A stretch of 64,000 nt of DNA from an uncultured Alphaproteobacteria bacterium. GTDB taxonomy: Bacteria; Pseudomonadota; Alphaproteobacteria; RF32; CAG-239. The stretch is from positions 100,676 to 164,675 of the forward strand of contig CALXUP010000001.1 of the NCBI GenBank assembly GCA_944391715.1, in the 5' to 3' direction. Positions 8,361 through 53,315 of the stretch are shown in pieces. Below the pieces are notes generated by a model. That model did no database searches. It saw only the letters and a program-made list of their open reading frames with translations, and was not told the origin of the DNA. Every line of letters starts with the position of its first letter. Within the stretch, counting starts at the first letter, position 1. The position numbers and the translations under genes are program-made.

Positions 8361-9467
8361 ATGAACCCGCAGTCTATTCTTGGAAGATATCTGACCAAAC
8401 AGATTATTTACAATTTTCTTGCCGTTTTGCTGATGGTAATCGGAATTGTTATGCTGTTTGAAGTCGTTGAACTGTTGCGCCGGGCTTCCGGCCGGGACGA
8501 TGCGTCTTTCGGCCTGATTATGGAGATGGCTTTTACCAAACTGCCGAAAACCGTGGAAATGGTTTTTCCGTTTGTGATGATGATTGCGGCCATGATTACG
8601 TTTTGGAAACTCAGCAAAAGTAATGAATTTGTGATTATCCGGAGTGCGGGCGTGTCTATCTGGGGTTTTCTGGCGCCGGTTCTTTTGGCAACGTTTTTGG
8701 TCGGGGTGGTCAATGTTACGGTGGTTAATCCGATTTCTGCCCGGATGAATGAATTGTACGAGACGCTGAATTATCGTTTTAAAACACGTAATCCGAAAGC
8801 TGTTCTTTTTTCTGAAAAAGGGTTGTGGCTGCGGGAGGCAATCAGCGCCGATAAGTTTCTTTATCTGCAGGCAAAATCCGTCCGGCAGGAACAAGATACA
8901 TTATTTTTGCGCGGCGTAACGATTTTGGAGATGAGCAGGGAATCGCAGAATTTGCGCCGGATTGAGGCTTATGCCGCCAATTTGAAGGATGATGTGTTTG
9001 AACTGATTAACGTTAAAATTTATGAGCCCGGAAAGCCAACCGTGTCGCAAGACAGGCTTATGTATAAAACAACCTTGACAATAGAAAGGATAAAAGAAAA
9101 TTTTGTTGAGCCGGAATCTATCTCTTTTTGGGATTTGCCGGATACAATCCATTTTTATGAGATGTCGGGCTTTTCGGCGCAAAAACACCGACTGCGTTAT
9201 TTGTCCCTGCTGGCCTCGCCTTTTCTGCTTTGTTCCATGGTTTTGGTGGCGGCGGTTTTTGCCTTGCGGCCGAATAACCGGCGCGGCGGTGTGATGTATC
9301 TGATTGTCGGCGGGCTTTCTACCGGTTTTATCGTCTATTTTATGTCGCAAGTAATTTATGCTTTCGGAATCAATAATATTATCCCCGGTTTTTTGGCGGT
9401 TTGGACGCCGGCGCTGATTGTGATGATGATTAGCGTGTCGGTTCTCCTCCATCTCGAGGACGGGTAA
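8361..9467 (+). CDS. LptF/LptG-family LPS export permease, the second paralog
   Basis: 368 aa with the same YjgP/YjgQ architecture as 1951..3096 (N-terminal TM bundle, periplasmic domain, C-terminal TMs). Its stop codon is abutted by a MITE-like repeat. Confidence 0.85.
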   Translation: MNPQSILGRYLTKQIIYNFLAVLLMVIGIVMLFEVVELLRRASGRDDASFGLIMEMAFTKLPKTVEMVFPFVMMIAAMITFWKLSKSNEFVIIRSAGVSIWGFLAPVLLATFLVGVVNVTVVNPISARMNELYETLNYRFKTRNPKAVLFSEKGLWLREAISADKFLYLQAKSVRQEQDTLFLRGVTILEMSRESQNLRRIEAYAANLKDDVFELINVKIYEPGKPTVSQDRLMYKTTLTIERIKENFVEPESISFWDLPDTIHFYEMSGFSAQKHRLRYLSLLASPFLLCSMVLVAAVFALRPNNRRGGVMYLIVGGLSTGFIVYFMSQVIYAFGINNIIPGFLAVWTPALIVMMISVSVLLHLEDG

Positions 9468-9698
9468 AAACTGCGCAATACGGACGCCTAATACAGAAAA
9501 GGAAAATCCGGCTAAGTTACGTACGTCTATGTACGCGCCTGTCGCCGGATTTTCCTTTTCTTATTATCCGTCTTAGGTATCTAGGCGCGCTGCGGTTGCT
9601 AACGCTTTCCTAGCTTGCCAAGATGTTCCAAAGAGCTTGCAGACAAAAACAACCGGAGCAGCGGTTGTTTTTACTTAGCGCTTCTATCGCAGTTTTTA
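9465..9698. mobile_element. Complete MITE-like palindromic element, long form (R1+R2 modules, ~234 bp), bounded by the TIRs TAAAAACTGCG / CGCAGTTTTTA. Its first TAA is the lptF-like stop codon.
   Basis: Near-identical to the copy at 17832..18064. The 11-bp terminal inverted repeats are read directly. Internal hairpins sit at 9497-9558 and 9646-9673. Confidence 0.8.
9646..9673. terminator. Bidirectional rho-independent terminator-like hairpin carried inside the repeat (aaaaacaaccg-gagcag-cggttgttttt)
   Basis: 11-bp perfect stem and 6-nt loop, with A-run and T-run flanks giving U-tracts on both strands. The same hairpin recurs at ~9849-9876 and ~18017-18044. Confidence 0.6.
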
Positions 9699-10040
9699 CA
9701 GCGGCTTGAAGAGACGTTTGTTATGGAAAGTTTAAAGCTAACCTGTCGCTAAAATTCTTTTTTCTTATTATCTGACTTAGGCATCTAGGCGCGCTGCGGT
9801 TGCTAACGCTTTCCTTGCTTGCCAAGATGTTACAAAGAGCTTGCAGACAAAAACAACCGGAGCAGCGGTTGTTTTTGCTTAGCGCTTCTATCGCGTTTTT
9901 TACAGCGGCTTGAAAGGAGATTTAGTATGGAAATTTTTTAGGTGGCTAAGTTACGTACGTCTATACGCGCCTGTCGCCTTAAAGTTTTTTTCTTATTACC
10001 AGTCTCATTTTCTTTGTTTTTTACAGTGGCTTGAAGGAAG
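9699..10040. repeat. Degenerate tandem partial copies of the same element (R1 3' half, a second R2 module, then fragments of R1/R2), filling the convergent intergenic space.
   Basis: Recognisable blocks ttaggcatctaggcgcgctgcggttgctaacgc... and ggctaagttacgtacgtctatacgcgcctgtcgcc are shared with the other loci. Confidence 0.75.
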
Positions 10041-10044
10041 GTCG

Positions 10045-11412
10045 TTAACTTTCCAAAATGTTTAAGCTCTGGCTGGTTTTGGCGATATCGGTGGTTATTT
10101 TACGGGTTTCTTCAATATTATCAGCGTTTTCAAAGATATAGAGTGCATCGTGAAAATATTCCAAAGCTTCTTCCAGCAATGCTTTGTCTCCGGCGTTTTT
10201 GCCCAGGCGGTAATAGATTTCGCCGATGTGTTCCTGGCTTTTGGCCCATTCCATCGGTGCCCGCCGTTCGGTTATGACTTTTTGCTGGTTTTTATAGCTG
10301 GCAATGGCAAGTTCCGAGATTTCCTCGCTTTTGGTAAAGTTGCCGAGAAGGCCGAGCATATAGCCCAATTCGCCTTGGATTTGCGCCCAGAATTCCGGAA
10401 ACAAGGCAAGCGTATAAATTTTTTCCGCTTCCCGCAGTTGAAAAACGGCATCGCGCAAAGCCTGAATGTCTTCTTTATACAGCCAGTAGCTTAAAAACAA
10501 ATGGGATAATTTATAAGATATATAGCCGTAATCATACGGGTAATTATATTTGCTCAAATATCTTTGCGCCTGGCGGTAATAGTTAATGGCTTCCCGGAAA
10601 TGACGAGCCGATTGTTTGGGGATGTATTTGGTCGAGCAGTCATAGAGCTGTCCGAGGTGGTTGTAGATACAGCCGAGATGGATTGGTGCGGTTATCAAAT
10701 CCTGATGTTTCAGCGCCGTGTCGAAAAGGTTTTTTACGATTTTGAAGTCTTTGCCCTGGCCGCGGTCAAAACAATAACTGAGGTAAATGATACCCAGAAA
10801 GTTCATTATATAAGGCATATATTCGATGGAGAGGTTTTTGGCGGAATCGTCCTTTGAAAGAGAATTGATTATCCTTTTCAGCAAATATCTTTTTTGGATT
10901 TTCTTTTCTTTTGAAAAAGTATTGAGCGAGCTGACAACGGCGCCGTAAATCAAATTGCCGACGGCGGGCGGAATTTTGTTTCCGGAGGATAATAAATCAG
11001 CCGGGATGTATAAACTGTCCAAGAGTGAAACAAAAGCGCAGTCTTCGTTTTCATATTGTTTTTCGGTCTGAAAATTCAGACGGATCCTGCTGCCTTCGCG
11101 ATATCCCCAAATTAAAACGTCGGCCTGTGTCTTGTCCAAAATGGTTTGTCCCCGGTCAATCAGATCAAACAGTGTCCGGCTTTCCAGATTGAGAAAGGTT
11201 TTGGAGAAAGGTTCATCAAAATATGAGACTTCCAAACCGTCTTTGCCGCTTAACAGGCGTGCGATGACTTCACCGCTGTTGCTTTCTATATTTTCGGAAA
11301 ACTCAACGACGACGACCTTGAATTTTATCAAATCTATGGCATTGACCGCCAAATTCAGATTATCGGGGCGGGTATGAAAAATTTTATGAAAAAAATCGGT
11401 CAGCCGCATCAA
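10045..11412 (-). CDS. Hypothetical 455-aa protein with a TPR-like C-terminal half and an unrecognised N-terminal domain
   Basis: Long ORF with good coding texture and an ATGA start/stop overlap with the upstream gene. The C-terminal region is rich in helical repeats with Y/L/A periodicity (YYRQAQRYL, YYRLGKN). Confidence 0.6.
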   Translation of the reverse strand: MMRLTDFFHKIFHTRPDNLNLAVNAIDLIKFKVVVVEFSENIESNSGEVIARLLSGKDGLEVSYFDEPFSKTFLNLESRTLFDLIDRGQTILDKTQADVLIWGYREGSRIRLNFQTEKQYENEDCAFVSLLDSLYIPADLLSSGNKIPPAVGNLIYGAVVSSLNTFSKEKKIQKRYLLKRIINSLSKDDSAKNLSIEYMPYIMNFLGIIYLSYCFDRGQGKDFKIVKNLFDTALKHQDLITAPIHLGCIYNHLGQLYDCSTKYIPKQSARHFREAINYYRQAQRYLSKYNYPYDYGYISYKLSHLFLSYWLYKEDIQALRDAVFQLREAEKIYTLALFPEFWAQIQGELGYMLGLLGNFTKSEEISELAIASYKNQQKVITERRAPMEWAKSQEHIGEIYYRLGKNAGDKALLEEALEYFHDALYIFENADNIEETRKITTDIAKTSQSLNILES

Positions 11413-15356: not shown

Positions 15357-17834
15357 ATGACTGACAGATATAATGGAAAAGGCTCATTTGAGGAATGGGC
15401 AAAAGAATGGGAAACGGAAGACCGCTATAATTTTAAAAAAATTGAAAAAAAGTGGCAGAGCATCTGGGATGAAAACAAGGCTTATAAGGTAGAAATCGAC
15501 AAGAATAAGGAAAAATATTATGTTCTGGTCGAATTTCCTTATCCGTCCGGCGCCGGTCTGCATGTGGGACATCCTCGCTCTTATACGGCATTGGATGTGG
15601 TAGCGCGCAAAAAGAGAATGCAGGGTTTTAACGTTTTGTATCCGATGGGCTTTGATGCTTTCGGTCTGCCGGCGGAGAATTATGCGATTAAAACCGGCGT
15701 TCATCCGGCAGTTTCCACTAAAGCCAATATTGAAAACTTTACCCGCCAGCTGAAGTCAATCGGATTCAGCTTTGACTGGGACAGAGCTTTTAATACCTGT
15801 GATCCGGAATATTATAAGTGGACGCAGTGGATGTTTATCAAACTTTTTGAAAAAGGTTTGGCATATAAAGACAAAATGGCAATCAACTGGTGCCCGTCCT
15901 GCAAAGTCGGTCTGGCTAATGAAGAGGTTGTCAACGGCTGCTGCGAACGTTGCGGTGCGCAGGTTGTTCGTAAGGACAAAGAGCAGTGGATGGTGGCAAT
16001 TACCAAATATGCCGACCGTTTGATTAACGATTTGGATGATTTGGATTTTATTGACCGGGTTAAAGCACAGCAGATTAACTGGATCGGGCGTTCGGAAGGT
16101 GCCGAGCTGGATTTTGATTTGGTTGACGTTCACGGTAATTCTTTGGACGGAAGAAAGCTTAAAGTCTTTACAACGCGTCCGGATACGGCCTTTGGCGTGA
16201 CTTATATGGTTATGGCGCCGGAGCATGCCTTTGTATCCGAGCTGATGCCGCAATTTGAAAATCCGGAAGAAATCAGAGCTTATGTGGCGGAAACGGCCAA
16301 AAAGTCTGATTTGCAGAGAACGATGGATGACAGCAAAACAGGTGTTGAACTGAAAGGGATTAAAGCAAAGAATCCGTTTAACGGAACGTTGATTCCGGTA
16401 TTTATTTCCGATTATGTGCTGACCGGTTACGGTACCGGCGCAATTATGGCGGTGCCGGCTCATGACCAACGCGACTATGATTTTGCCAAGGCTTTTAATC
16501 TGCCGATTATTCAGGTTCTGGCCGGCGGCGATATTGCCGAAAAGGCTTGGGAAGAAGACGGTGCACATATTAATTCCGGCTTTATGGACGGCATGAATAA
16601 AGATGAGGCGATGAAGGCTGCAATTGCTTTTGCCGAAAAGAACGGTTTTGGCAAATCGAAGGTTAATTTCAAACTGCGTGACTGGGTATTTTCACGTCAG
16701 CGTTATTGGGGCGAGCCTATTCCGATGGTCTATTGCGAGCATTGCGGCTGGCAGCCGGTTCCGGAAGACCAGCTCCCTCTGACTTTGCCGGAAGTTCCAG
16801 ATTATCTGCCGAATGATAACGGCGACTCTCCTTTGGCAAAGGCCACCGACTGGGTTAATACAACTTGTCCGAAATGCGGAGCTCCGGCACGCAGAGAGAC
16901 CGATGTTATGCCAAACTGGGCGGGTTCGTCATGGTATTTTCTGCGTTATTGTGATCCGCACAATGACAAAGAGTTTGCCTCTAAAGAAGCGTTGGATTAC
17001 TGGATGAATGTCGATTGGTATAACGGTGGTATGGAGCATACGACTTTACACCTGCTTTATTCGCGTTTTTGGCATAAGTTTTTGTATGACTGCGGTTATG
17101 TGCCGACCAAAGAACCCTATCAGCGCCGGACGTCGCATGGTATGATTTTGGCTGAGAACGGCGAGAAAATGTCAAAATCGCGCGGTAATGTGATTAATCC
17201 CGATGATATTGTTAATAATTACGGGGCAGACAGCTTCCGTCTGTATGAGATGTTTATCGGGCCGTTTGACCAGGTGGCAATGTGGTCCGATGACAGTCTG
17301 AACGGTGTATACCGTTTTGTCGGCAAGGTGTATAACCTGTTTAAGAAGGTTAATAAAAGTGCCAAGCCCTCGGCTAAAGATATTCAGATGATGCACAAGA
17401 CCATTCTTGAAGTTACCGAAAGAATTGATCAGATGAAGTTTAACACGGCGGTTTCTTCTTTGATGACCTATGTAAACCATTTGTCTTCTTTGGATGAGAT
17501 TGCTCCGGAGCTTTATGAAAATCTGCTGCTTTTGATGTGTCCGTTTACGCCGCATCTGGCAGAGGAAATGTGGGCAAGAATGGGGCATACGTCATTGATT
17601 ATTACGGAGCCCTGGCCGAAAGGCGATGCCAAACTGGCTGAGGAAAATACCGTTACTTATGCCGTTCAGATTTGCGGCAAAATGCGCGGTACAATCGATT
17701 TGCCGAAAGACGCACCGCGCGAAGAGGTTGAAAAAGCCGCATTATCGCTTGAAAATGTTAAGCGGCAGTTGGAAGGCAAAGAGGTTAAAAAGGTTATTGT
17801 GGTGCCTAATAAAATCATCAACCTTGTTGCGTAA
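15357..17834 (+). CDS. leuS: Leucyl-tRNA synthetase
   Basis: HIGH motif (HVGHPRSYT), KMSKS motif (KMSKSRGN), class I editing-domain context and leuS-lptE-holA synteny. Confidence 0.95.
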   Translation: MTDRYNGKGSFEEWAKEWETEDRYNFKKIEKKWQSIWDENKAYKVEIDKNKEKYYVLVEFPYPSGAGLHVGHPRSYTALDVVARKKRMQGFNVLYPMGFDAFGLPAENYAIKTGVHPAVSTKANIENFTRQLKSIGFSFDWDRAFNTCDPEYYKWTQWMFIKLFEKGLAYKDKMAINWCPSCKVGLANEEVVNGCCERCGAQVVRKDKEQWMVAITKYADRLINDLDDLDFIDRVKAQQINWIGRSEGAELDFDLVDVHGNSLDGRKLKVFTTRPDTAFGVTYMVMAPEHAFVSELMPQFENPEEIRAYVAETAKKSDLQRTMDDSKTGVELKGIKAKNPFNGTLIPVFISDYVLTGYGTGAIMAVPAHDQRDYDFAKAFNLPIIQVLAGGDIAEKAWEEDGAHINSGFMDGMNKDEAMKAAIAFAEKNGFGKSKVNFKLRDWVFSRQRYWGEPIPMVYCEHCGWQPVPEDQLPLTLPEVPDYLPNDNGDSPLAKATDWVNTTCPKCGAPARRETDVMPNWAGSSWYFLRYCDPHNDKEFASKEALDYWMNVDWYNGGMEHTTLHLLYSRFWHKFLYDCGYVPTKEPYQRRTSHGMILAENGEKMSKSRGNVINPDDIVNNYGADSFRLYEMFIGPFDQVAMWSDDSLNGVYRFVGKVYNLFKKVNKSAKPSAKDIQMMHKTILEVTERIDQMKFNTAVSSLMTYVNHLSSLDEIAPELYENLLLLMCPFTPHLAEEMWARMGHTSLIITEPWPKGDAKLAEENTVTYAVQICGKMRGTIDLPKDAPREEVEKAALSLENVKRQLEGKEVKKVIVVPNKIINLVA

Positions 17835-18064
17835 AAACTGCGCAATACGGACGCCTAATACAGAAAAGGAAAATCCGGCTAAGTTACGTACGTCTATGTA
17901 CGCGCCTGTCGCCGGATTTTCCTTTTCTTATTATCCGTCTTAGGTATCTAGGCGCGCTGCGGTTGCTAACGCTTTCCTAGCTTGCCAAGATGTTCCAAAG
18001 AGCTTGCAGACAAAAACAACCGGAGTAGCGGTTGTTTTTGCTTAGCGCTTCTATCGCAGTTTTT
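17832..18064. mobile_element. Complete MITE-like palindromic element, long form. Its first TAA is the leuS stop codon. The right TIR variant is CGCAGTTTTTG.
   Basis: About 98% identical over ~230 bp to 9465..9698. The same TIR and internal hairpins are read directly. Confidence 0.8.
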
Positions 18065-19826: not shown

Positions 19827-20900
19827 TTAGTTTTCTTTTCGGCAAAAACGGTTAAAAAATAAAGCCAGCTGCCGGATGAAAAAGATTGCGGCGATTGATG
19901 AAAAATGGAAGAACATAGCGCAGGCTCCAAAAATGGCCAGAACAGGGATCCATTTTCCCGAAAGTTCAAAATCCGAATAAAATACCGGAATTCCATAGCA
20001 TAAAGTTATGAATACATAAAGCATCAGCAGAAAGTAGATTATTCTTATTATCGGGCGGAGAATAAATTTTTTGAATTTTCCGCAGGGCTTGTTTTTTATG
20101 AATTTGCGTATTTTTTGCCACTGATACGGGGCAAAAATGTTTCCGCCGTATATTAAAAACATAATGCAAATAATATTGAGGAACATAAAATTTAGAAAAG
20201 CCTGACTACTGAAGGAAGGTGAGGCAAAAAAGGCGTCATTTATGAAATTAACAACGGCATTTTTATGCTCTATTCCCGGATTGCTGAGGTAAAGCGCATT
20301 TTGGCAATAAAGGATTATGTAAGCGAAGAACCCCAGAAAAAGAAGAAAACGGTCAATGAATACCTGATCGACAAATTTTCTGATTTTTAGAAGATGCTTT
20401 TCTTCTTCCGTGGAAAGCCGTTCAATTTTTCCGATGTTGGCAATGATGAAGAATTTATTGAAAAAAGTTTGTTTTATTTTTCTTCTGAATGAGATTTTTG
20501 TGCCGGTGTTTTGCTCTTTTGCTTGTTTCAGGGCACGGTTTATTACTGAATAAGTTTTGAAAAATAAAGTTATCTGCGGCAGGCAGTAAGGGGTAATTGG
20601 AGATTTTTTCCAGGTGATAACGGCAAAGGCATATACGGAAAACAGCATAATCATCATTGCCGGTGCCGAAGGATGTTTTTGGTACAGGGCGGATCCGGCA
20701 AAAAATGTCAGATAGGCAAGCCAGGCAAGGCATATTAATTTGAAAAGGATTCCGTTGTTTTGTTTGTTTTCAATATGTCTCAGCAGTTTTTTCAGCGGAT
20801 TGCCGGCCGCCAGCCGATCGGAGATTCTTAGTCCCGGAATCTGTTTTTGGAATTGTTCAAAATTTTCGGGCAGAAAGTCTTCGGGTGTTATGTCGGTCAT
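19827..20900 (-). CDS. Hypothetical polytopic membrane protein (357 aa) with no recognisable family, in a low-GC islet
   Basis: At least 8 predicted hydrophobic helices and an ATGA overlap with the upstream ORF. AT-rich codon usage distinct from the flanking genes. Confidence 0.55.
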   Translation of the reverse strand: MTDITPEDFLPENFEQFQKQIPGLRISDRLAAGNPLKKLLRHIENKQNNGILFKLICLAWLAYLTFFAGSALYQKHPSAPAMMIMLFSVYAFAVITWKKSPITPYCLPQITLFFKTYSVINRALKQAKEQNTGTKISFRRKIKQTFFNKFFIIANIGKIERLSTEEEKHLLKIRKFVDQVFIDRFLLFLGFFAYIILYCQNALYLSNPGIEHKNAVVNFINDAFFASPSFSSQAFLNFMFLNIICIMFLIYGGNIFAPYQWQKIRKFIKNKPCGKFKKFILRPIIRIIYFLLMLYVFITLCYGIPVFYSDFELSGKWIPVLAIFGACAMFFHFSSIAAIFFIRQLALFFNRFCRKEN

Positions 20901-21862
20901 TGCGTTTTTCCTTTTCCGTTTGTTGTTCGGAGATCGACGGCAAAAATCCTGTTATAAAGTTTGACGTAGAGTTTTGACGGATTTTTTCTCCGGTCGGCGC
21001 TCAGATGAAGAATTTGTTCCGGGTGTTCCGGGGCGGAGGATATTGTAAATTTTTGCGGATAAGGCGGGCAGCCTTCGTAAAAGCCTTTTTGTTTTTTATA
21101 TTTTTCCGGAATGTCTGCCAGTTTTATAGTATCTGAGAACTTTGGATAGGTGTCAATAAAACGGATGTAATTGGTTCCGCAATAGGTAAAGCGGTCTTTT
21201 TGCGGGCAGAAGTTCATTATGGAAACCGTGAAGAACCCTTTTTTATCTTTTAACGGAACGACCTCGTAACCGGCAGCATAAAGCCTGTAGTCTTTCTGGT
21301 CTTTGGTAATGAGCAGGTCAGAAGAGAACATCGGTCTGAAGAAAGGATATTTCCAGTAAGAAACGGCAATCGGAGATAAAATATTTTCGATTTTCGGCTG
21401 GCATTTATTTTTTGAATCAGGAAAGGTGATTTTTTGCAGTGAAAAAAACGGAAATTCCGTTTGGGGAAGATGCAGTTTTAATTTTTCGTACTGATCCGTG
21501 CGGGTAAGTGTGCCGGCAAAACCGCTGTTGATGATGCCGAAATTGTTTTCTTTTTTCAAATTTGTAAAGTCGGAGATTTCCGTATATGTGTTGGTTAATG
21601 TTATGGGCGATATGGACGTTGTTTCTTTTGTTGACGGCCGTTGTTGAAGTAATTCCGAGCTTTTTCGGGCATAATGGGAATCTTTATATTGATTGTCGAT
21701 GCAGGCGGTCAATTTATCTAAGGAAAGAGTGCTGCTGCACCAGAAAAGCGGTTGGGCTTCGAAAAAAAATTTATAATATTTGTTGTACAATTTGACATTT
21801 ATGACAATAAGCACGAGGACAAATATGAGAATAAGGATGCGGCGGAAATTGCTCAGAGGCAT
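20897..21862 (-). CDS. Hypothetical protein (321 aa), N-terminal membrane anchor plus an extracytoplasmic domain, unknown family
   Basis: TM helix ILILIFVLVLIVINV followed by a soluble Cys-containing domain. Translationally coupled to 19827..20900. Confidence 0.55.
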   Translation of the reverse strand: MPLSNFRRILILIFVLVLIVINVKLYNKYYKFFFEAQPLFWCSSTLSLDKLTACIDNQYKDSHYARKSSELLQQRPSTKETTSISPITLTNTYTEISDFTNLKKENNFGIINSGFAGTLTRTDQYEKLKLHLPQTEFPFFSLQKITFPDSKNKCQPKIENILSPIAVSYWKYPFFRPMFSSDLLITKDQKDYRLYAAGYEVVPLKDKKGFFTVSIMNFCPQKDRFTYCGTNYIRFIDTYPKFSDTIKLADIPEKYKKQKGFYEGCPPYPQKFTISSAPEHPEQILHLSADRRKNPSKLYVKLYNRIFAVDLRTTNGKGKTQ

Positions 21863-22291: not shown

Positions 22292-22990
22292 ATGTACAGC
22301 GAAAAATTTGCCAAAGCGGTTGAGATGCTGCAAAAAGATTTTGCTTTGGAAAGATCTATTGATGAAAAAATTTGTGCCGATCGGGACGGAAGGCCAATTC
22401 CCTGGTATACATTTCCGGCGATTGAGTATTTATCGCAATTTGATTATCGAAACAGAAAAATTTTTGAATACGGCTGCGGTTCTTCTTCGCATTTTTGGGC
22501 GGAGAGAGCCGAAAAGGTCATTAGTATTGAAGATAATCCGAAGTGGTTTGAGAAATGGCAGGCAGAAATGACGGAATCTAATCTGGAGGTTCGCTGGCGG
22601 GATGAAGGCGAGATTTATGAAAATGCCATTTTTGAACAGGAAGATTTGTTTGATGTTATTGTGGTTGACGGTAAAAGACGGGCGGAATGTTGTGCGGCGG
22701 CGGTGCAAAGACTGACTAAGGGCGGAATGATTATTCTTGATGACAGCGACAGGGTTAATACCAGCCAGGAATATCGAAAAGCGATTGCCATTCTTCGGGA
22801 AAGCGGATTGATTCAGGTGGATTTTTATGGTTTTTGCCCAATGAATTGTTATACCAAAACAACCAGTCTGTTTTTGAGCCGGGATTTTGATTTTGAATCA
22901 AAATATGAGGTTCAGCCGATAAACGGATTGGGAAATTTATGGTCGATGAGCCGACGAGAAAGAAAGGATTTTTATAAGAAAATGGCATAA
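22292..22990 (+). CDS. Putative class I SAM-dependent methyltransferase
   Basis: Motif I-like IFEYGCGSSSHFWA and an acidic motif II/post-I (VISIEDN), followed by VIVVDG...GGMIILDD, typical of the Rossmann MTase fold. A terminator follows. Confidence 0.55.
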   Translation: MYSEKFAKAVEMLQKDFALERSIDEKICADRDGRPIPWYTFPAIEYLSQFDYRNRKIFEYGCGSSSHFWAERAEKVISIEDNPKWFEKWQAEMTESNLEVRWRDEGEIYENAIFEQEDLFDVIVVDGKRRAECCAAAVQRLTKGGMIILDDSDRVNTSQEYRKAIAILRESGLIQVDFYGFCPMNCYTKTTSLFLSRDFDFESKYEVQPINGLGNLWSMSRRERKDFYKKMA

Positions 22991-22992
22991 AA

Positions 22993-23031
22993 AACAGGAT
23001 TGCGGTTTTTTACCGGAATCCTGTTTTTTTT
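22993..23031 (+). terminator. Rho-independent terminator after the methyltransferase gene
   Basis: Hairpin caggattgcgg/ccggaatcctg followed by TTTTTTTT. Confidence 0.6.
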
Positions 23032-23316
23032 GTATCAGTCATCATATCTGTTAACATTGCGGTATTTGTATATATCATACCACATTATCAGATATACAAA
23101 CACTGTAAATACGACCCAAATTAATCCTGTAATTTGCCAGCCGTTTAATGAAGCTAAAAAGTCGACCATAGTATTTTTTTATTTAATGGTTAATGAATTC
23201 AAAAAATTTATAAAAAAATGTATGCGAATTTTTGTTTCATAAAAGCAATATAATTAAAGTTAATAATAAATTTTGTGCTTTCCAATATATGCCAGAACGT
23301 CTTTGTAGTCAACAGA

Positions 23317-32899: not shown

Positions 32900-33406
32900 T
32901 TAAACCGGAAAATTGTTCAGATAAAAACTGGCAAGGAGCAGGAGGATGAGCGGTAAAACAACTTTTTCAAACGGAAAATGAGCATGTCCGCCGTTTCCGG
33001 CCTTCATCCACTGATAAAATTTTTGCGAATAAATATAAATGAGCATCCCGAGCAGAGCGCTGAACAAAATCGGATCAAGATAAAAAACATACCAGATAAT
33101 ATGCGGCTGATAATTGACCTCGCTAATATAGATAAAGCCAATCATCCCCACGGAAATCAGCATTAAAAGAAAATCACGCCCCCAAAAATGCCAGTTTTTA
33201 CTGTCGAAAAATTTGATGCACCAATAGCCGAGAAGTGTCAGCAGAGCTCCTGCCCACAAGCCGACGACAGAGTCTTCTATACCAAGTTTCCGGGCAATGC
33301 CGATTGATGCGCCAATGGCAACGGTACAGACGGCGCAGGCCGGATTAGCAAAGGCCTGTACCGGATACAAGATAAAAGCCAATAAGGATAATGTAAGATT
33401 TTTCAT
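32900..33406 (-). CDS. Hypothetical membrane protein (168 aa) with a signal peptide and a CxxC pair near the N-terminus
   Basis: A signal-like N-terminus (MKNLTLSLLAFILYPVQAFA) and four hydrophobic segments. No family recognised. Confidence 0.5.
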   Translation of the reverse strand: MKNLTLSLLAFILYPVQAFANPACAVCTVAIGASIGIARKLGIEDSVVGLWAGALLTLLGYWCIKFFDSKNWHFWGRDFLLMLISVGMIGFIYISEVNYQPHIIWYVFYLDPILFSALLGMLIYIYSQKFYQWMKAGNGGHAHFPFEKVVLPLILLLLASFYLNNFPV

Positions 33407-33566: not shown

Positions 33567-34277
33567 ATGGAAATTTATAAGGAAAATTTACCGCCTTGTT
33601 GGTGGGACGGGCGTTTTGGGAAATTTAACATAAAATGTTCTCTGTCGTATAGGATTTTGGCATTGGAAAAGGGTGCGGAAACTATGTGGCAGGAACGGCA
33701 ATGGTTTATTTTTACGGATAAGCTGACGCGAGTTTCTCTGCGTTCTTTTGTCATGATTGAAAAAGAAACTTTTACCGGGCATCCTTTTTTCAAACTGGTT
33801 ATTGAAAATGAGCCGGTTTCTGAAAGCGATTTTCCGGAAGATTCTTTGGTGTATGAAAGTTTTTATCAAGATCCGGTCGGATACGGTGCAACAGTCGGCA
33901 AGAACTTCTACAGCAGCTTTAGCGCCTTAATGCTTCCGCCCTTTCAAAATCAAACGGGATATTGTATTGGCGGTATATATTTTCGAACGGAACTTGATGA
34001 AGATTTTCAAAAAAAGAAAACAGATCGTTATCTGGTTACTCCGAAAGAATTTTGCGCAAAGGTTTCATGGAAACATCTGGTGAAATATGCCAAGCCGTAC
34101 AATGCTTGTTTTGCTGCAGCGCGGGTAAAGAAATATCCGGACAAGATTTTTGCCGGACGGAGAGTTGTTCCGTTGTATATTGCGGATATTTGTGTCGGGG
34201 CAGAGCTCCTTGGCAGTAAGGGAAAGCCAAATTGCCGAGAGTATATGTCTTTTGAAGACTATTTGTCCTTATTGTAA
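33567..34277 (+). CDS. Hypothetical protein (236 aa), no recognisable domain, low GC
   Basis: Long ORF with coding-like composition, AT-rich relative to its neighbours, preceded by a very AT-rich promoter-like region. Confidence 0.5.
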   Translation: MEIYKENLPPCWWDGRFGKFNIKCSLSYRILALEKGAETMWQERQWFIFTDKLTRVSLRSFVMIEKETFTGHPFFKLVIENEPVSESDFPEDSLVYESFYQDPVGYGATVGKNFYSSFSALMLPPFQNQTGYCIGGIYFRTELDEDFQKKKTDRYLVTPKEFCAKVSWKHLVKYAKPYNACFAAARVKKYPDKIFAGRRVVPLYIADICVGAELLGSKGKPNCREYMSFEDYLSLL

Positions 34278-34321: not shown

Positions 34322-35179
34322 TTAAGACAATTTTCGGAGGAGGATTTTGAGCTTTCCTTTTAACGTCAACCTTGCTTTCTCCCATTGGACAAACGAATAA
34401 AGAACCGGATAGAGCTTGTCATTGATCTGAAAAACACAATGATAATTTTTCAGTTTATATTTTCCTTCGTCAACCAGGTCAGCACATCCCTTAGATACAG
34501 CATAAAGCTTGGCATTGCCGCTTTCATCCAAAAGAAGATAAGCATTGTCAAAAGTAATAATGTTTTTTCCTTCTGCAAAAAATTTATAAGCCCCGACTTT
34601 GGGAACAAAACCGTAAATTTTCATCTTGTTATTACAATCATCAACGGTTATCAACTCTGCTTTAGCAGGACTGTCGTAACGATAAATATCAAAATATCCA
34701 TCACTTCTTTCAATAACAATCGTTTCATCACAGATAAAAAACGGTTTGCTATACTGTTTTTGAATAAGTTTAAAAGGGTCTGCTGTTAAAAAAGACATAG
34801 TATAATTTTCTTCCGGATAACTTTTCAGATAGAAACATTGTTTCGTTTTAAAAGAACCATAATTTTCGGCTTTTCCCAGACATTCATCTTTGCCCGAAAC
34901 GTTTTTCCGTCTCAGATACCAAAGCCCGTCTTTTTGATATATCAGGCATTTGTCATATTTTTTGATATCAGAACAGTACTGCGGGGTTTGATGCAGTTTG
35001 TCATCCTCAATCCAGAAAAAGCGAAAATTTTCCTCTGAATCTCCCGCTTTTGCCTCCGTCAAAGATTGATCAACCGTAACAGTAATACCCTCGTCCAGCT
35101 TTTCAAACTTTTCCAATTTACTGTCCCATAGCCACAAAATATTCAGGCCGGCAGCTTTTGTAATAATAAAATGTTTCAT
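34322..35179 (-). CDS. Hypothetical protein (~286 aa from MKHFII at 35179), no recognisable domain, low GC
   Basis: Long ORF convergent with 33567..34277. Cys-containing soluble protein. Confidence 0.5.
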   Translation of the reverse strand: MKHFIITKAAGLNILWLWDSKLEKFEKLDEGITVTVDQSLTEAKAGDSEENFRFFWIEDDKLHQTPQYCSDIKKYDKCLIYQKDGLWYLRRKNVSGKDECLGKAENYGSFKTKQCFYLKSYPEENYTMSFLTADPFKLIQKQYSKPFFICDETIVIERSDGYFDIYRYDSPAKAELITVDDCNNKMKIYGFVPKVGAYKFFAEGKNIITFDNAYLLLDESGNAKLYAVSKGCADLVDEGKYKLKNYHCVFQINDKLYPVLYSFVQWEKARLTLKGKLKILLRKLS

Positions 35180-35310
35180 GACATAAAAATATTTAATTTG
35201 ACATAATTTTATTTTGCCCGATGAAAGTAGCATAACGTGCCGGAGAAGTCAACAGATGCTTGAAACCGGAGAAGCGGGGGCTATATCTTTGTTGTTTTAA
35301 GGAGGGGAAA

Positions 35311-36285: not shown

Positions 36286-36300
36286 ATATATTATTTTCTT

Positions 36301-36330
36301 AAAAAGCTCCCTTTTGCAAGGGAGCTTTTA
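36301..36330. terminator. Bidirectional rho-independent terminator between convergent genes
   Basis: agctccc-ttttgcaa-gggagct hairpin flanked by an A-run and a T-run. Confidence 0.7.
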
Positions 36331-36332
36331 TG

Positions 36333-44727: not shown

Positions 44728-44956
44728 CTTTTCTCTCCTCAAAATCATACATTAATTATATTAACACGCCGGAGGGTTGATTCCAAAATAAATCTTTTTC
44801 TTTTCCAACAATATTTTTATAACCGGCCGAAAGAATGATATTTGCCGATTCTTAACCTATTGTTTAGAAAGAAATAATAAGATAACGGGCAGAACCACGG
44901 CGGGAATCCGTTTGGTTTCCGTTGGTTTGTTGGTATCAATCTATAAGGAAAATCAT

Positions 44957-47368
44957 ATGTTTGGTTTGAAAAATTTTAAGACTTTCGCCGGTGCCCTGAT
45001 GCTGGCGCTGGTCGGGGTGGTTCAAGGGGCGTATGCTTCAGAAATCGACCTCAAAATTCCGTCTTTGGACGTGGAATACAATATCTTCGGTTATTCCGTC
45101 CTGGGATCGCAGATTTTGTTTTATGGTATGAGCATCTGTGTTCTCGGTATGCTTTTTGGTTTGTATGAATTTCTTAAAATCAAAAAAATGCCGGCTCACG
45201 AAGCCATGCTGAAAGTATCGGAACTGATTTATGCGACCTGCAAAACCTATATGAAACAACAAGCTAAACTGCTTTTGCTTCTGGAATTGTTTATTGCGGT
45301 TTGTATTTTCTACTATTTCTATTATCTCAACGCAACGCCGATGCCGAAAGTGCTGACAATTCTTTCCTGGTCGGTTCTCGGTATTCTCGGGTCTTATTCG
45401 GTGGCCTGGTTCGGTATGCGCATTAACAATTATGCCAATGCCCGCACAGCCTTTTCTTCTTTGGAAGCCAAGGCTTATAAGGTTATGAGCCTGCCGCTGC
45501 GTTCCGGCATGTCTATCGGTGTTTTGCTGATTTGCGTTGAGCTGATTATGATGATTGCCATTCTTTTGTTTGTGCCGAAAGAAAGCGCAGGCGCCTGCTT
45601 TATCGGATTTGCCATCGGTGAATCTTTAGGTGCGGCGGCTTTGCGTATTTGCGGCGGTATCTTTACCAAGATTGCCGATATCGGTGCGGATTTGATGAAG
45701 ATTATTTTCAAAATCGGTGAAGATGATGCCCGCAATCCGGGTGTGATTGCCGACTGTACCGGTGATAATGCCGGCGACTCCGTCGGTCCGACCGCCGATG
45801 GTTTTGAGACTTACGGCGTTACCGGTGTGGCTCTTATCAGCTTTATCGTTCTGGGTGCCGGTATGATGTATGCCCCGAACGGTGATTTGACCCTGATGCC
45901 GAACGGTGTTGATTTTCAGGCTCGTCTGATTGTCTGGATTTTTGCAATGAGACTCCTGATGATTATTACTTCGCTGGTTTCTTACTGGCTTAATAACAAA
46001 GTTTCTTCCGCCCTTTACGGCAAAAAGGAATTTTTTGATTTTGAAAAACCGTTGACCAGCCTGATTTGGTTTACTTCCATTATCTCGATTGCCGTTACTT
46101 TCGGCGTTTCTTATGTGATGATCGGTGATCTCAGCCCGGATTTGTGGTGGAGACTTTCTCTGATTATCAGCTGTGGTACTTTGGCTGCGGCTTTGATTCC
46201 GGAATTTACCAAAATCTTTACTTCGTCAAAATCCCAACATGTTCAGGAAATTGTCAAATCCAGTCGTGAGGCCGGTGCTTCTCTGAACATTATTTCCGGT
46301 ATCGTTGCCGGTAATTTCTCGGCTTTTTGGCAGGGTATAGTTATGGTCGGCCTGATGGTGGTTGCGTTCTTTACCGCCCAATCCGGTTTGGACAGCTTTA
46401 TGGTTTATCCGACAGTCTTTGCTTTCGGTCTGGTAGCTTTCGGTATGCTCGGCATGGGGCCGGTTACGATTGCCGTAGACAGCTATGGCCCGGTAACCGA
46501 TAATGCCCAGTCTGTTTTTGAGCTTTCTCAGATTGAAGGTATTAAGAACGTTGACAAAGATATTGAGAAAAAATACGGCTTTAAACCGAATTTTGAGCAG
46601 GGCAAACATTTGCTCGAGGCCAATGACGGCGCCGGAAATACCTTTAAAGCAACGGCTAAGCCGGTGCTTATCGGTACGGCCGTTATCGGTGCTACAACGA
46701 TGATTTTCTCAATTATCCTGTTGCTTAACCTGAAACTGAATCTGCTGGATCCGCAAGTCCTGTTCGGCCTTATTCTCGGCGGTGCGGTGATTTACTGGTT
46801 CTCCGGCGCTTCAATGCAGGCGGTTTCGACCGGGGCTTATCGTGCAGTTGATTTTATTAAAAAACATATCAAACTGAGCGGTAAGAAAGCGGCTTCGCAG
46901 AAAGACTCTCAGGAAGTGGTCAAGATTTGCACAATTTATGCGCAAAAGGGTATGTTTAATATCTTTATCGTAATCTTTTCCTTTACGATTGCTTTTGCCT
47001 GCTTTGATGCAAATCTGTTTGCAAGCTATCTGATTTCAATTGCCGTATTTGGTTTGTTCCAAGCGCTGTTTATGGCAAATGCCGGCGGTGCATGGGATAA
47101 CGCCAAGAAAGTGGTTGAAGTTGATTTGAACGAGAAAGGTACGCCGCTGCATGACGCTACCGTTGTCGGCGATACGGTCGGTGATCCGTTCAAAGATACG
47201 TCTTCCGTTGCTCTCAACCCGATTATCAAATTTACAACCTTGTTTGGTTTGTTGGCGGTTGAGATGGCCGTAGCGGCTCCGAGATGTGTATCTCTGGGGC
47301 TGGGTATTTTCTTCTTATTGTTGGGGTTGGTATTTGTATATCGGTCTTTCTACAAGATGAAAATATAA
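44957..47368 (+). CDS. hppA: Membrane-bound proton-translocating pyrophosphatase (H+-PPase)
   Basis: About 800 aa and 15+ TM. The conserved GDNAGD and DxxGDxxGD motif region (CTGDNAGDSVGPTADGFETY) is present, and an AAGGAAAA RBS precedes the ATG at 44957. Confidence 0.9.
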   Translation: MFGLKNFKTFAGALMLALVGVVQGAYASEIDLKIPSLDVEYNIFGYSVLGSQILFYGMSICVLGMLFGLYEFLKIKKMPAHEAMLKVSELIYATCKTYMKQQAKLLLLLELFIAVCIFYYFYYLNATPMPKVLTILSWSVLGILGSYSVAWFGMRINNYANARTAFSSLEAKAYKVMSLPLRSGMSIGVLLICVELIMMIAILLFVPKESAGACFIGFAIGESLGAAALRICGGIFTKIADIGADLMKIIFKIGEDDARNPGVIADCTGDNAGDSVGPTADGFETYGVTGVALISFIVLGAGMMYAPNGDLTLMPNGVDFQARLIVWIFAMRLLMIITSLVSYWLNNKVSSALYGKKEFFDFEKPLTSLIWFTSIISIAVTFGVSYVMIGDLSPDLWWRLSLIISCGTLAAALIPEFTKIFTSSKSQHVQEIVKSSREAGASLNIISGIVAGNFSAFWQGIVMVGLMVVAFFTAQSGLDSFMVYPTVFAFGLVAFGMLGMGPVTIAVDSYGPVTDNAQSVFELSQIEGIKNVDKDIEKKYGFKPNFEQGKHLLEANDGAGNTFKATAKPVLIGTAVIGATTMIFSIILLLNLKLNLLDPQVLFGLILGGAVIYWFSGASMQAVSTGAYRAVDFIKKHIKLSGKKAASQKDSQEVVKICTIYAQKGMFNIFIVIFSFTIAFACFDANLFASYLISIAVFGLFQALFMANAGGAWDNAKKVVEVDLNEKGTPLHDATVVGDTVGDPFKDTSSVALNPIIKFTTLFGLLAVEMAVAAPRCVSLGLGIFFLLLGLVFVYRSFYKMKI

Positions 47369-47492
47369 AAACTGCGCAATACGGACGCCTAATACAGAAA
47401 AGGGAAATCCGGCTAAGTTACGTACGTTTATGTACGCGCCTGTTGCCGGATTTTCCTTTTCTTATTATCCGTCGCGTCTATCGCAGTTTTTA
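47366..47492. mobile_element. Complete MITE-like element, short form (R1 module joined directly to the right TIR, 127 bp). Its first TAA is the hppA stop codon.
   Basis: TIRs TAAAAACTGCG / CGCAGTTTTTA. The body is ~95% identical to the R1 module at 9465 and 17832. Confidence 0.8.
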
Positions 47493-47760
47493 CAGGGGTT
47501 TGAAAGGGCGTTTAGTATAGAAAGTTCTTAAGGCTAATCATGTACCACTACGTACACTCCTGTCGCTTTAAAGGTTTTTTCTTATTACTAGCCTCATTCT
47601 CCGTGATTTTTGGTAAAAACAGCGCTCTGTGGTCACCTAATACAGAAAAAAGAATTTTAGCTAAGTCATGTATGCTTTTATACACTCCTGTCGCTAAAAT
47701 TCTTTTTTCGTATTATCCGTCTTAGGTATTTAGGCGCGCTGCAATATGTTCCGAAGATAC
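47493..47760. repeat. Degenerate and partial copies of the same family, including a second left arm TAAAAACAGCGCTCTGTGGTCACCTAATACAG at 47614 and a truncated R2 5' end
   Basis: Shared blocks cctaatacagaaaa, cctgtcgc...cttattatccgtcttaggtat. Confidence 0.7.
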
Positions 47761-52168: not shown

Positions 52169-52906
52169 ATGTTTAGATTAGATGGAAAAATTGCCCTGAT
52201 TACCGGTGCTGCCGGCGGTTTGGGGGATAAAATCGCCCGGACGCTGCATGCTCAGGGGGCAACATTGGCTTTGACCGATATGCGCGAAGAGCCGATGCTT
52301 AAACTGAAAGAAGAGCTCGGTTCCAATGTTGAGGTCTTTACGGCCAACCTGACGAATCCGGATGATGTTAAGTCTTTGGTAGAAAAAGTTGAGGCAAAAC
52401 TCGGCCGGATTGATATTTTGGTTAACAACGCCGGTTTGACCCGCGATAACCTTTTTATCAGAATGAGCGACGAAGACTGGCAGCTGGTTTTGGATGTTAA
52501 CCTTTCCGCCGGTTTCAAATTGGCAAAAGCTGCCGTTCGCGGTATGATGAAACGCCGTTACGGTCGTATTATCGGCATTGCCTCGGTTGTCGGCGTTACC
52601 GGAAATGCCGGTCAGGCCAACTATTCTGCCTCCAAGGCCGGTATGATTGCCATGAACAAATGTCTGGCTCAGGAAGTCGGCTCACGCGGCATTACCGTAA
52701 ACTCGATTGCGCCGGGCTTTATCCGCACGCCGATGACTGATGTTTTGCCGGAAGATGTTAAAAAAGCTCTGTTGGCGAAAATTCCGGAAGGCAAACTCGG
52801 TGAAGCTCAGGATATTGCCAATGTTGTAGCATTTTTGGCTTCCGATGAGGCGCAGTATATTACGGGACAGACTATTAATATCAATGGCGGAATGGCCATG
52901 ATTTAA
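52169..52906 (+). CDS. fabG: 3-oxoacyl-ACP reductase
   Basis: TGAAGGLG cofactor motif, the NNAG motif and the YSASKAG catalytic tetrad context. Confidence 0.95.
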   Translation: MFRLDGKIALITGAAGGLGDKIARTLHAQGATLALTDMREEPMLKLKEELGSNVEVFTANLTNPDDVKSLVEKVEAKLGRIDILVNNAGLTRDNLFIRMSDEDWQLVLDVNLSAGFKLAKAAVRGMMKRRYGRIIGIASVVGVTGNAGQANYSASKAGMIAMNKCLAQEVGSRGITVNSIAPGFIRTPMTDVLPEDVKKALLAKIPEGKLGEAQDIANVVAFLASDEAQYITGQTININGGMAMI

Positions 52907-52917
52907 AACTTGCAAAA

Positions 52918-52996
52918 GGCCGGTCATGCTTGTTTCTTTTCTCCTCGTGTACCTTTTTTGTACACGTCGTCGAAAAAAAACGGCGCAGCACCGGCC
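52918..52996. repeat. R3 palindromic module copy a (~79 bp; outer stem GGCCGGT/ACCGGCC, inner stem CGTGTAC/GTACACG)
   Basis: Directly repeated ~85% at 53149..53228; nested inverted repeats read directly. Confidence 0.7.
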
Positions 52997-53010
52997 TTTA
53001 TCAAGTTTTT

Positions 53011-53136
53011 TAAAACCGCGCTCTGTGGTCACCTAATACAGAAAAAGGAAATCCGGCTAAGTTATGTACGTTTATGTACGCGCCTGTCGCCGGATTTCCT
53101 TTTTCTTATTATCCGTCGCGTCTATCGCGGTTTTTA
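53011..53136. mobile_element. Complete MITE-like element, short form, with covarying TIR variant TAAAACCGCG / CGCGGTTTTTA
   Basis: Body ~90% identical to 47366..47492. Both TIR arms carry a compensatory T->C and A->G change relative to the other copies. Confidence 0.8.
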
Positions 53137-53148
53137 CAGCGGCTAAAA

Positions 53149-53228
53149 GGGCTGGTCATACTTGTTCCTTTTCTCCTCGTGTATCTGTTTGGTACACGTT
53201 GTTGGAAAGTAACTGCGTAGCACCAGCC
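53149..53228. repeat. R3 palindromic module copy b, followed by a degenerate left-arm fragment (aaaactgtgttttgtggttacctagtatat)
   Basis: Sequence similarity to 52918..52996. Confidence 0.7.
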
Positions 53229-53261
53229 TTTTATAAAACTGTGTTTTGTGGTTACCTAGTA

Positions 53262-53296
53262 TATAAAAAACTCCGGAAGTGTTTTCCGGAGTTTTA
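53262..53296 (-). terminator. Rho-independent terminator downstream of grpE
   Basis: actccgga/tccggagt hairpin with a U-tract on the minus-strand transcript. Confidence 0.6.
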
Positions 53297-53315
53297 CATT
53301 CTGAATTATTAACAG

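Follow-up and report, generated by a model that had tools for sequence, protein, structure and literature searches.

Hairpin repeats that follow stop codons and GC skew: an uncatalogued family in uncultured gut Alphaproteobacteria

Introduction

The short palindromic repeats of bacterial intergenic DNA include the REP sequences, which are 21-65 nt long, carry a 5' GT[AG]G (or CGTC) tag and occur as inverted doublets (PMC6006769, PMC3733652). These are acted on as single-stranded DNA (ssDNA), of which the lagging-strand template is the main source, by Y1 enzymes related to those of IS608 and ISDra2, and these two insertion sequences excise from and insert into the lagging-strand template through ssDNA hairpins (PMC6006769). 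REP and ERIC sequences are co-transcribed with upstream genes and affect mRNA stability, and the pneumococcal SPRITE is a repeat of ~105 bp that resembles a Rho-independent terminator (PMC3184786). Here we describe a repeat family found in a 64,000-nt stretch, hereafter the window, of contig CALXUP010000001.1 (positions 100,676 to 164,675) from an uncultured alphaproteobacterium. A first-pass annotation of this DNA had reported four intergenic loci with nested palindromic elements and had assigned them to a previously uncatalogued family of miniature inverted-repeat transposable elements (MITEs). We find that the repeat units are hairpins under selection for base pairing, that they start at stop codons, follow GC skew in orientation, turn over in arrays and are restricted to one lineage. 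They form an uncatalogued repeat family that is a relative of the REP/ERIC/MITE class and not a demonstrated cut-and-paste MITE. Nearly all that is known of the hosts comes from metagenomes, and there is essentially no description of their non-coding DNA.

Results

The unit is a single long hairpin under selection for base pairing

The sequence was read directly at all four loci, and repeats, inverted repeats and folds were computed. A covariance model of the unit was built from aligned copies and run on the window and on loci fetched from other genomes (numbered L001 onwards). In the window, the model recovered seven units, all on the + strand, at 9465, 9896, 17832, 47363, 47504, 47615 and 53007. 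Model E-values reached 1e-38, the fold z-scores of the window loci ranged from -6.2 to -11, and the core motif was found at 46 further loci, so the repeats are not chance similarities.

A unit consists of a single long, imperfect hairpin, 127-133 nt in length (126 nt at 53011), with five helices. P1 has the consensus (G)TAAAAACNGCG / CGCNGTTTTTA(C), which in the window short form reads (G)TAAAAACTGCG / CGCAGTTTTTA(C). P2 comprises ~4-5 bp, with GACG/CGTC in the subfamily of the window short form and GTCA/TGAC, GATG/CATC or GGTTA/TAACC in others. P3 (CTAATACAGAAAA / TTTTCTTATTAT, with a CA bulge) is invariant, as are the internal-loop strands GCTAAGT and CCTGTCGC. P4 is hypervariable, 10-12 bp long and nearly always perfectly paired, and P5 is the apical stem. 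An inverted-repeat search gave a main stem of 18 bp (AGAAAAGGAAAATCCGGC / GCCGGATTTTCCTTTTCT) that is 100% complementary, where a stem of 16 bp had been annotated at first. In many copies P1 is followed by a conserved 3' tail, ACAGCGGCYTGAAGG, which has no 5' counterpart, and the element is therefore asymmetric. Diverged units whose 5' side opens with the 3'-tail sequence are referred to here as type B. Units lie head to tail in arrays that fill the space 3' of a gene's stop codon. At one fetched locus (L028:884-1090), ~75 nt of extra sequence right after GCTAAGT in the apical loop reveals one more nesting level.

RNAalifold, run on a MAFFT alignment of 30 copies from ~17 species, returned 43 pairs, 22 of them with double compensatory changes. 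Among 36 distinct copies, in an alignment that was fitted to the model and so favours structure but with which the independent 30-copy alignment agrees, 98.3% of cells paired compared to 81.3% in shuffles. In this set, 25 of the 43 pairs changed on both sides, no shuffle reached any of the five measures, and sliding the pairing partners by one to three columns lowered pairing to ~50%. The P1 termini themselves differ among copies with compensating changes (AAAATCCCG/CGGAATTTT, AAAAGTTCG/CGAACTTTT and GTGAAAATGCG/CGCATTTTCAC). In one copy at the FabG site, the A run and the T run have exchanged arms (TTTTCAGCCG/CGGCTGAAAA), and one copy with a TGA stop (L034) carries a compensating TCAC on the 3' arm. 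Such compensated variation indicates selection on pairing rather than on a fixed end sequence for DDE transposase binding. On the top strand, G-T pairs exceed A-C pairs (22 vs 12), a slight hint that this is the strand that folds. The family consists of lineage-specific, non-coding, structure-selected hairpin repeats.

Units start at stop codons and their polarity follows GC skew

As judged with a crude caller of open reading frames (ORFs), on which all position counts rest, 33 of the 52 assessable arrays start -7 to +5 nt from the stop of an upstream co-oriented ORF; because some sites recur in different genomes and some loci are adjoining pieces of one contig, the counts are not fully independent. 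The TAA of TAAAAAC is usually the stop codon itself. In many of the exceptions, the array starts one module later, ~94-126 nt from the stop, and at the window FabG site the intervening module itself begins at the stop. Between co-directional genes, the element was in sense orientation in 16 pairs and antisense in 1.

GC skew was positive on the top strand of the element in 58 of 58 loci (mean +0.145), which makes the top strand the G-rich strand. Most coding was on the element strand in only 46 of these loci, and in six loci with 23-37% of coding on that strand the skew was still positive. About 22 arrays lie between convergent genes; all follow the skew, with the 5' end facing the gene on the G-rich strand. 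The array at L040 is antisense to both neighbours and still follows it. Separate arrays within one locus always share their orientation. Neighbouring units also agree in orientation in all arrays except that of L025, which has a weak 55-bit match on the opposite strand. The G-rich strand of most bacterial genomes corresponds to the leading-strand sequence and hence to the lagging-strand template, which is exposed as ssDNA in replication. Because the skew is followed in every locus, convergent arrays included, and the coding majority in only 46, we infer that the polarity of the element is set by replication and not by transcription.

The skew of the window is itself unusually strong and uniform. 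It lies between +0.075 and +0.204 in all sixteen 4-kb bins and is independent of gene strand, about half of the genes being on the - strand. There is no switch in skew, so neither origin nor terminus lies in the window, despite the presence of rnpA, yidC and dnaB.

These data bear on the view that the units are mainly cis-acting RNA elements of the 3' untranslated region, serving as a terminator or as an mRNA-stabilising or protein-binding hairpin, kept by selection at the RNA level and spread only by recombination or gene conversion. Extensive covariation, invariant loops and bulge, the excess of G-U over A-C pairs on the sense strand and array starts at stop codons are all as this view would have them, and the transcribed REP and ERIC sequences offer a precedent. 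The same holds for the 16 sense to 1 antisense count, for conservation above neutral sites, for the persistence of sites across species and for the replacement of a native terminator at the LeuS site (see below). However, the convergent arrays could face either way and yet follow the G-rich strand, as does the array of L040, and a 16:1 ratio is near that expected from replication polarity alone, given ~70% coding on that strand. Near-identical units at unrelated loci (9465 and 17832, 97%) require a copying process, and in a relative the convergent genes are separated by just 4 nt, which shows the element to be dispensable. As the main account of the family, an RNA-level role of this kind is conceivable but rather unlikely.

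Elements at four gene ends of the window

The four loci follow the genes of LptG, LeuS, an H+-pyrophosphatase (H+-PPase) and FabG (Table 1). Shared repeats, stems and inverted termini agree with the first-pass annotation almost to the base, as do the R2 hairpin around GAGCAG (AAAAACAACCG-GAGCAG-CGGTTGTTTTT) and the short forms of 127 and 126 nt. All the elements that it listed are real, but the loci hold more, with seven model units plus a further repeat, D6. The perfect 11-bp terminal inverted repeats (TIRs) that it described, TAAAAACTGCG / CGCAGTTTTTA, are present at 9465, where they extend even to 12 bp (GTAAAAACTGCG / CGCAGTTTTTAC, 9464-9475 and 9688-9699). At 17832 the right terminus is CGCAGTTTTTG, with 10 of 11 positions matching, and at 53011 the termini differ (TAAAACCGCG / CGCGGTTTTTA). 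The two long forms are near-identical as claimed, at 97% across 255 nt (direct-repeat family D2) instead of ~98%. In the fold predicted at 9465, P1 closes the main hairpin plus R2. The outer stem that surrounds a D6 hairpin at the FabG site is found around a type A core in other strains and species.

Table 1. Repeat units and associated modules at the four window loci
Feature	Coordinates	Strand	Basis and remarks
Long-form unit	9465..9698	+	Starts at TAA stop of LptG; model 108.7 bits; inverted repeats I2, I3, I5
Parts of the 9465 unit	P1 5' arm 9465-9475; main hairpin ~9484-9571; nested R2 9572-9679; P1 3' arm 9688-9698		
3' tail (ACAGCGGCTTGAAG...), then 5'-truncated unit, second R2 (9776-9883), P1-like 3' arm	9699..9902	+	Direct repeat D2 (9668-9922, 70%); R2 blastn match 96%; absent in strains with 146-nt or 263-nt spacers
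Divergent type B unit and tail	9896..10040	+	Model 44.3 bits (9896-10027); strain alignment; convergent TPR-like gene (10045-11412, - strand) has its stop codon 4 nt beyond this end
Long-form unit, nested R2 17939-18046	17832..18064	+	Starts at TAA stop of LeuS (15357-17834); model 108.7 bits; degenerate tail to ~18115
Short-form unit, 127 nt	47366..47492	+	Starts at TAA stop of H+-PPase gene (44912-47368); model 143.7 bits; fold -61.2 kcal/mol, z = -6.8
Type B unit, diverged, own outer stem region	47504..47603	+	Model 49.5 bits; deleted in strain L083 via recombination between unit loops
Unit of the AAGAATTTTA-stem subfamily	47613..47747	+	Model 94.2 bits; inverted repeat I2 (17 nt, 100%); 3' end truncated within R2, of which only the first ~25 nt are left
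D-type unit	52905..53009	+	Starts at TAA stop of FabG (52169-52906); D6 family, inverted repeat I1, fold; outer stem AAAACTTG/CAAGTTTT around D6 hairpin 52914-52999
Short-form unit, 126 nt	53011..53136	+	Model 137.8 bits; chimeric, P2 5' arm from one subfamily and 3' arm from another
Second D6 hairpin (53146-53231), then 5' fragment of another unit (TAAAACTGTGTTTTGTGGTTACCTAGTATA)	53146..53262	+	D6 family, inverted repeat I3, fold
Ordinary terminator hairpin	53263-53300		After second D6 and unit fragment

The modules R2 and D6 ride on the units

R2 is a module of ~108 nt. In the long form it lies within the unit, with the P2 3' arm before it and the P1 3' arm after it, and P1 closes a branched fold. 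Of the fetched loci, 38 contained R2. Its orientation always matched that of the units, its sequence is nearly invariant across species, and it ends in a hairpin followed by a T-run. With so little variation, no covariation is measurable in R2. Normally the P2 3' arm precedes it; four loci have the apical GTAC/ATAC before it instead, for which a second insertion site or a deletion could be responsible. D6 is a separate family of hairpin repeats of ~86 nt with inverted ends of its own (AAAGGCCGGT...ACCGGCCTTT). Besides its two window copies (52914-52999 and 53146-53231), it was present in 23 of the fetched loci, again always co-oriented with the units, and its apical stem CGTGTAC...GTACACG recalls P5.

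An ORF of 28 codons at 9623-9709 (MFQRACRQKQPEQRLFLLSASIAVFTAA) crosses R2 and ends within the conserved tail, and a second copy keeps it. In about half of the copies, among them the window copy at 17939, TAG/TAA in the hairpin loop breaks this ORF, and its coding potential was rejected for that reason. An ORF starting from an ATG in the apical region was also rejected, as this ATG is absent in the TGTAT/ATACA subfamily. Sigma-70-like sequences, TTTACA-N18-TAGTAT, at 9899-9928 and 47489-47518 span the P1 end plus tail and point into the next unit; such matches are at chance level (2 found vs 1.0-1.6 in shuffles).

A further reading is that the family encodes a product acting in trans, either a multicopy small RNA or a small hydrophobic, type I toxin-like peptide from the 28-codon ORF. 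The near invariance of R2 across species, its hairpin and T-run, the ORF kept in a second copy up to the conserved tail and the promoter-like sequence in the tail would all suit such a product. Against this, the ORF is cut in about half of the copies, the promoter match does not exceed chance, no Rfam family matches, and R2 offers no measurable covariation. We therefore regard a trans-acting product as very improbable.

Arrays turn over among strains and species

At each of the four sites, array length varies among strains whose flanking proteins are identical. Spacers among strains measure 146, 263 or 578 nt after LptG, 361-653 nt between LeuS and LptE, 279-536 nt after the H+-PPase and 394-521 nt between FabG and GrpE. 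Unit number and type vary, but no conspecific strain has an empty site at any of the four window loci. Since these sites are also filled in several species, they are old. Chimeric variants at L001 (LptG site) and L083 (H+-PPase site) are recombinants between units. In L057 and L082, an extra unit of 128-129 nt lies exactly between the stop codon and the previous first unit. Both an insertion beside TAAA(A) and a deletion across short direct repeats would explain this difference. The sequences next to the polymorphic units, TAAAAA or TAAAAACTGCG, also form part of the neighbouring unit. At the FabG site, three unrelated first modules were found within one species.

Across species, which subfamily occupies a site is not governed by relatedness. 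Two close relatives, whose LptG genes are 84-87% identical at four-fold sites, carry another subfamily at the LptG site, with a unit only 68-70% identical to that of the window, whereas a distant relative (57% at four-fold sites) has a unit that is 92% and an R2 that is 93.5% identical. This mismatch indicates strong constraint or ongoing exchange between loci and genomes.

An insertion unrelated to the units was seen in one conspecific strain (L086:1290-1430), where 140 bp lie between the esterase and ABC_trans_aux genes. It contains short GC-rich hairpins (CCCCCGATTTATCGGGGG, CCACGC..GCGTGG and CCCCCAGTTTACTGGGGG), is flanked by TATTACA / TATTGCA and is missing in the two other aligned sequences, the window (36285-36333) and strain L082. 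Its sequence resembles that of a genuine MITE-type insertion that duplicated ~7 bp of target.

Two sites are empty in a related species

A related species, whose LptG protein is 83% identical, is syntenic over 21 kb with window positions 1-22,000. No unit was found in its syntenic 21 kb with the covariance model, filters off and E up to 0.1. In this species (L075:2605-2614, L105:11105-11114), the stops of LptG and of the convergent TPR-like gene are 4 nt apart (TAA-TTCT-TTA) with no terminator between them. Its LeuS-LptE spacer (L105) is 134 nt long and has an ordinary terminator hairpin where the window has the element and no other terminator; at the LeuS site, the element takes a terminator's position. 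The two empty sites imply that the family was gained in one lineage or lost in the other. Both are too diverged from the window sites for a comparison of target duplications.

Native terminators of the window (22988-23040 and 36290-36330) have the layout of stop codon running into A-tract, stem and T-tract, and P1 and the R2 hairpin share the A-tract, stem and T-tract. On this resemblance, the units may act as terminators. The idea that P1 is a pre-existing local terminator into which a core was inserted was attractive at the FabG site, where one outer stem surrounds different cores. As a general rule it was discarded, since the 11-mer TAAAAACTGCG is identical at three unrelated loci.

The empty sites also bear on the first-pass classification of the units as classical non-autonomous MITEs, mobilised through 11-bp TIRs, with TA duplication, by an IS630/Tc1-mariner-type DDE transposase encoded elsewhere in the genome. 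Two sites are indeed empty in a relative, although none is empty in conspecific strains. The inverted termini, small size, lack of an ORF, long and short forms and dispersal over many loci and species are those of a MITE, and units are bounded by TA, tandem ones meeting as TTTTTA|TAAAAA (L023, L046). Folding into long hairpins is typical of MITEs (PMC3184786), and some DDE IS families are also replication-biased in orientation (PMC3971601). However, TA is palindromic and inside the stem, and so cannot be distinguished from stem sequence. The next base beyond it also pairs (G...C) in ~14 of 20 copies by our own reading of the alignment, an inverted rather than a direct relationship, and no TA duplication could be demonstrated. 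Termini that vary with compensation on the other arm are unlike a shared transposase-binding sequence, and the conserved 3' tail makes the element asymmetric. The complete polarity and the invariant internal loops are left unexplained, starts at stop codons are likewise not predicted, and no transposase was found in the window (Pfam) or in the fetched loci. What holds of the initial proposal is a non-autonomous family of non-coding, dispersed, nested and modular repeats with long and short forms; we consider mobilisation as an IS630-type MITE improbable.

The family is restricted to one lineage of gut bacteria

A search with the motif CTAATACAGAAAA-N10-GCTAAGT in a species-representative genome collection returned 47 stretches, one of which is archaeal and a chance match. 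The other 46 lie in 17 species-level metagenome-assembled genomes (MAGs) whose record titles read 'uncultured Alphaproteobacteria', 'Azospirillum sp.' or proteobacterium. These MAGs come from human, mouse, ruminant and deer gut, and 15 more stretches were obtained from metagenome contigs. The further copies expected of a dispersed family are therefore numerous in related genomes.

The family is uncatalogued, as had been proposed. No Rfam family matched the elements, either at gathering thresholds, which only a tRNA passed in the window, or at permissive ones, and the best sub-threshold matches were generic hairpin models with 22-26 bits against thresholds of 70-100. Searches with blastn using 11-nt words found nothing in 5,426 complete E. 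coli genomes and nothing in plasmids, IMG/VR had no exact match to the motif, and literature searches on this clade and repeats returned nothing specific. R2 or a full unit was seen in three scaffolds from human faecal viromes titled 'UNVERIFIED: Bacteriophage sp.' (MT838567.1 or L103, MT835812.1 or L104, and MT835910.1). L103 encodes two proteins with a C-terminal domain like that of VgrG3 of the type VI secretion system, and for this reason the three scaffolds are probably bacterial DNA of this clade, not phage.

No transposase or integrase was found in the 64-kb window by Pfam scans and gene tables, in line with the first-pass annotation, and no cognate transposase with the same ends, of IS630/mariner or another type, was found in the window or the fetched loci. 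The Y1 search used phmmer with IS200 and IS608 TnpA as probes against six-frame ORFs of at least 70 aa. It found no IS200/IS608-like ORF and no RAYT gene (Y1-like ORF) in the ~800 kb of fetched loci, which cover a few percent of each genome. Sizeable window ORFs without a Pfam match include 19827-20900 and 20897-21862 (at E<=0.01) and 32900-33406, 33567-34277 and 34322-35233 (at E<=1e-5).

Discussion

Covarying ends, asymmetry and complete polarity fit elements that are read as ssDNA hairpins, such as those of the REP/RAYT and IS200/IS605 systems. The reading that we favour, and which we judge about equally likely to hold or to fail, is that the family is a REP/ERIC-like, terminator-mimicking hairpin repeat that spreads via ssDNA and recombination. 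The top, G-rich strand would fold as a hairpin when the lagging-strand template is exposed as ssDNA during replication. An enzyme acting on ssDNA, for which the HUH/Y1 type is the best-fitting precedent, would copy or move the units, and this step would fix their orientation. Insertion or retention would be favoured at TAA(A) directly after a stop codon, the presumed target. The arrays would afterwards be reshuffled through homologous recombination and gene conversion between units, and each unit would be transcribed as the 3' end of the upstream gene, where it may replace an intrinsic terminator or a protective 3' hairpin.

Several observations weigh against this mechanism. Neither the searches of the window for a transposase or integrase nor the IS200/IS608 probes applied to the ~800 kb of loci, a few percent of each genome, found a candidate enzyme. 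The conserved 5' GT[AG]G tag of REP sequences is missing, and units are direct rather than inverted doublets. Folding energy does not support the top strand, because the bottom strand folds more stably in 35 of 36 copies, and a scan with a terminator consensus called none inside the elements. The argument from skew is indirect, as the skew is taken to mark the replication strand as in most bacteria, with no origin or terminus in view. IS families of other chemistries also show an orientation bias linked to replication (PMC3971601). No insertion was caught, and the differences within species are also readable as deletion between TAAAAA or TAAAAACTGCG repeats. Finally, the abutment of units on stop codons may be a by-product of very short ancestral spacers and of selection against promoter hits.

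A bolder version of the ssDNA mechanism is that the units are portable terminators moved by an undescribed ssDNA enzyme, which would read the ~130-nt hairpin of the lagging-strand template and insert it beside the TAA(A) of stop codons on that strand. The family would then be a replication-coupled class of non-autonomous elements that targets stop codons, apart from REP/RAYT, IS200/IS605 and DDE MITEs, with R2 as a second element that targets the first. We consider this version unlikely.

The family occupies several hundred bases after many housekeeping genes. Its arrays vary among strains with identical flanking proteins, which makes them ready-made strain markers, and they are a likely cause of broken assemblies. 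The combination of covariation, invariant loops, stop-codon starts and full polarity provides a clean case for how structured repeats copy, by ssDNA enzymes or by recombination, and lets one ask whether such repeats take over the job of terminators. Should the enzyme prove to be an ordinary RAYT or IS630 transposase, the family would be one more member of a well-known class.

Comparison with known systems

The TA-duplicating MITEs Correia (Neisseria) and RUP (pneumococcus) are small, non-coding and intergenic, with TIRs, long hairpins and deletion or insertion variants (PMC3184786). The units share these features, with inverted arms of 11-12 bp around 126-234 nt and an only ORF that is not conserved. 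They differ in that their termini covary, the tail is asymmetric, polarity is strict, TA lies inside the stem and no cognate transposase was found in the window or fetched loci.

Integron attC sites, such as the Vibrio cholerae repeats, are likewise imperfect palindromes of ~60-140 bp after ORF ends, with structure conserved more than sequence and one strand that folds. Here, the neighbours LptG, LeuS, H+-PPase and FabG are in conserved synteny and are not cassettes, and Pfam found no integrase in the window. By eye, the ends of the element do not resemble the attC core GTTRRRY.

With SPRITE and with intrinsic terminators, the units share the layout of A-tract, stem and T-tract directly after stop codons; the stem here is far longer (~43 pairs), has invariant internal loops and was not called by the consensus scan.

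Orientation by replication strand, as marked by the skew, is shared with IS200/IS605 elements (IS608, ISDra2 and their non-autonomous derivatives). Recognition of a hairpin rather than of sequence ends, and insertion beside a short target without target duplication, would be shared as well, and TAAA/AAAA, a possible common left flank in the two unit polymorphisms, may be the counterpart of their target. Those elements have two small subterminal hairpins and no TIR, whereas here one hairpin spans the unit. No tnpA or tnpB was seen near the units in Pfam scans of the window or in the ~800 kb of loci, the latter probed for TnpA only.

Like REP, BIME and REPIN sequences, the units are structure-selected extragenic hairpins in strain-variable mosaic clusters with long-lived, coexisting subfamilies. 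They differ from them in being a single ~130-nt hairpin with no conserved tag and in the direct orientation of neighbouring units.

ERIC is the closest analogue in form. The host clade differs, and homology is not indicated because blastn found no sequence similarity in the 5,426 E. coli genomes. ERIC copies reportedly persist at the same site across species with stem-preserving substitutions (Wilson and Sharp 2006). We know of no report of direct tandem arrays, stop-codon starts or strict polarity, as found here, for ERIC. Both are ~127-bp imperfect palindromes in transcribed intergenic DNA, with TA at each terminus, long variants that arose by insertion at one fixed internal position and short ones that arose by deletion, and both are found at the 3' ends of genes, where ERIC affects the fate of the mRNA (PMC3184786).

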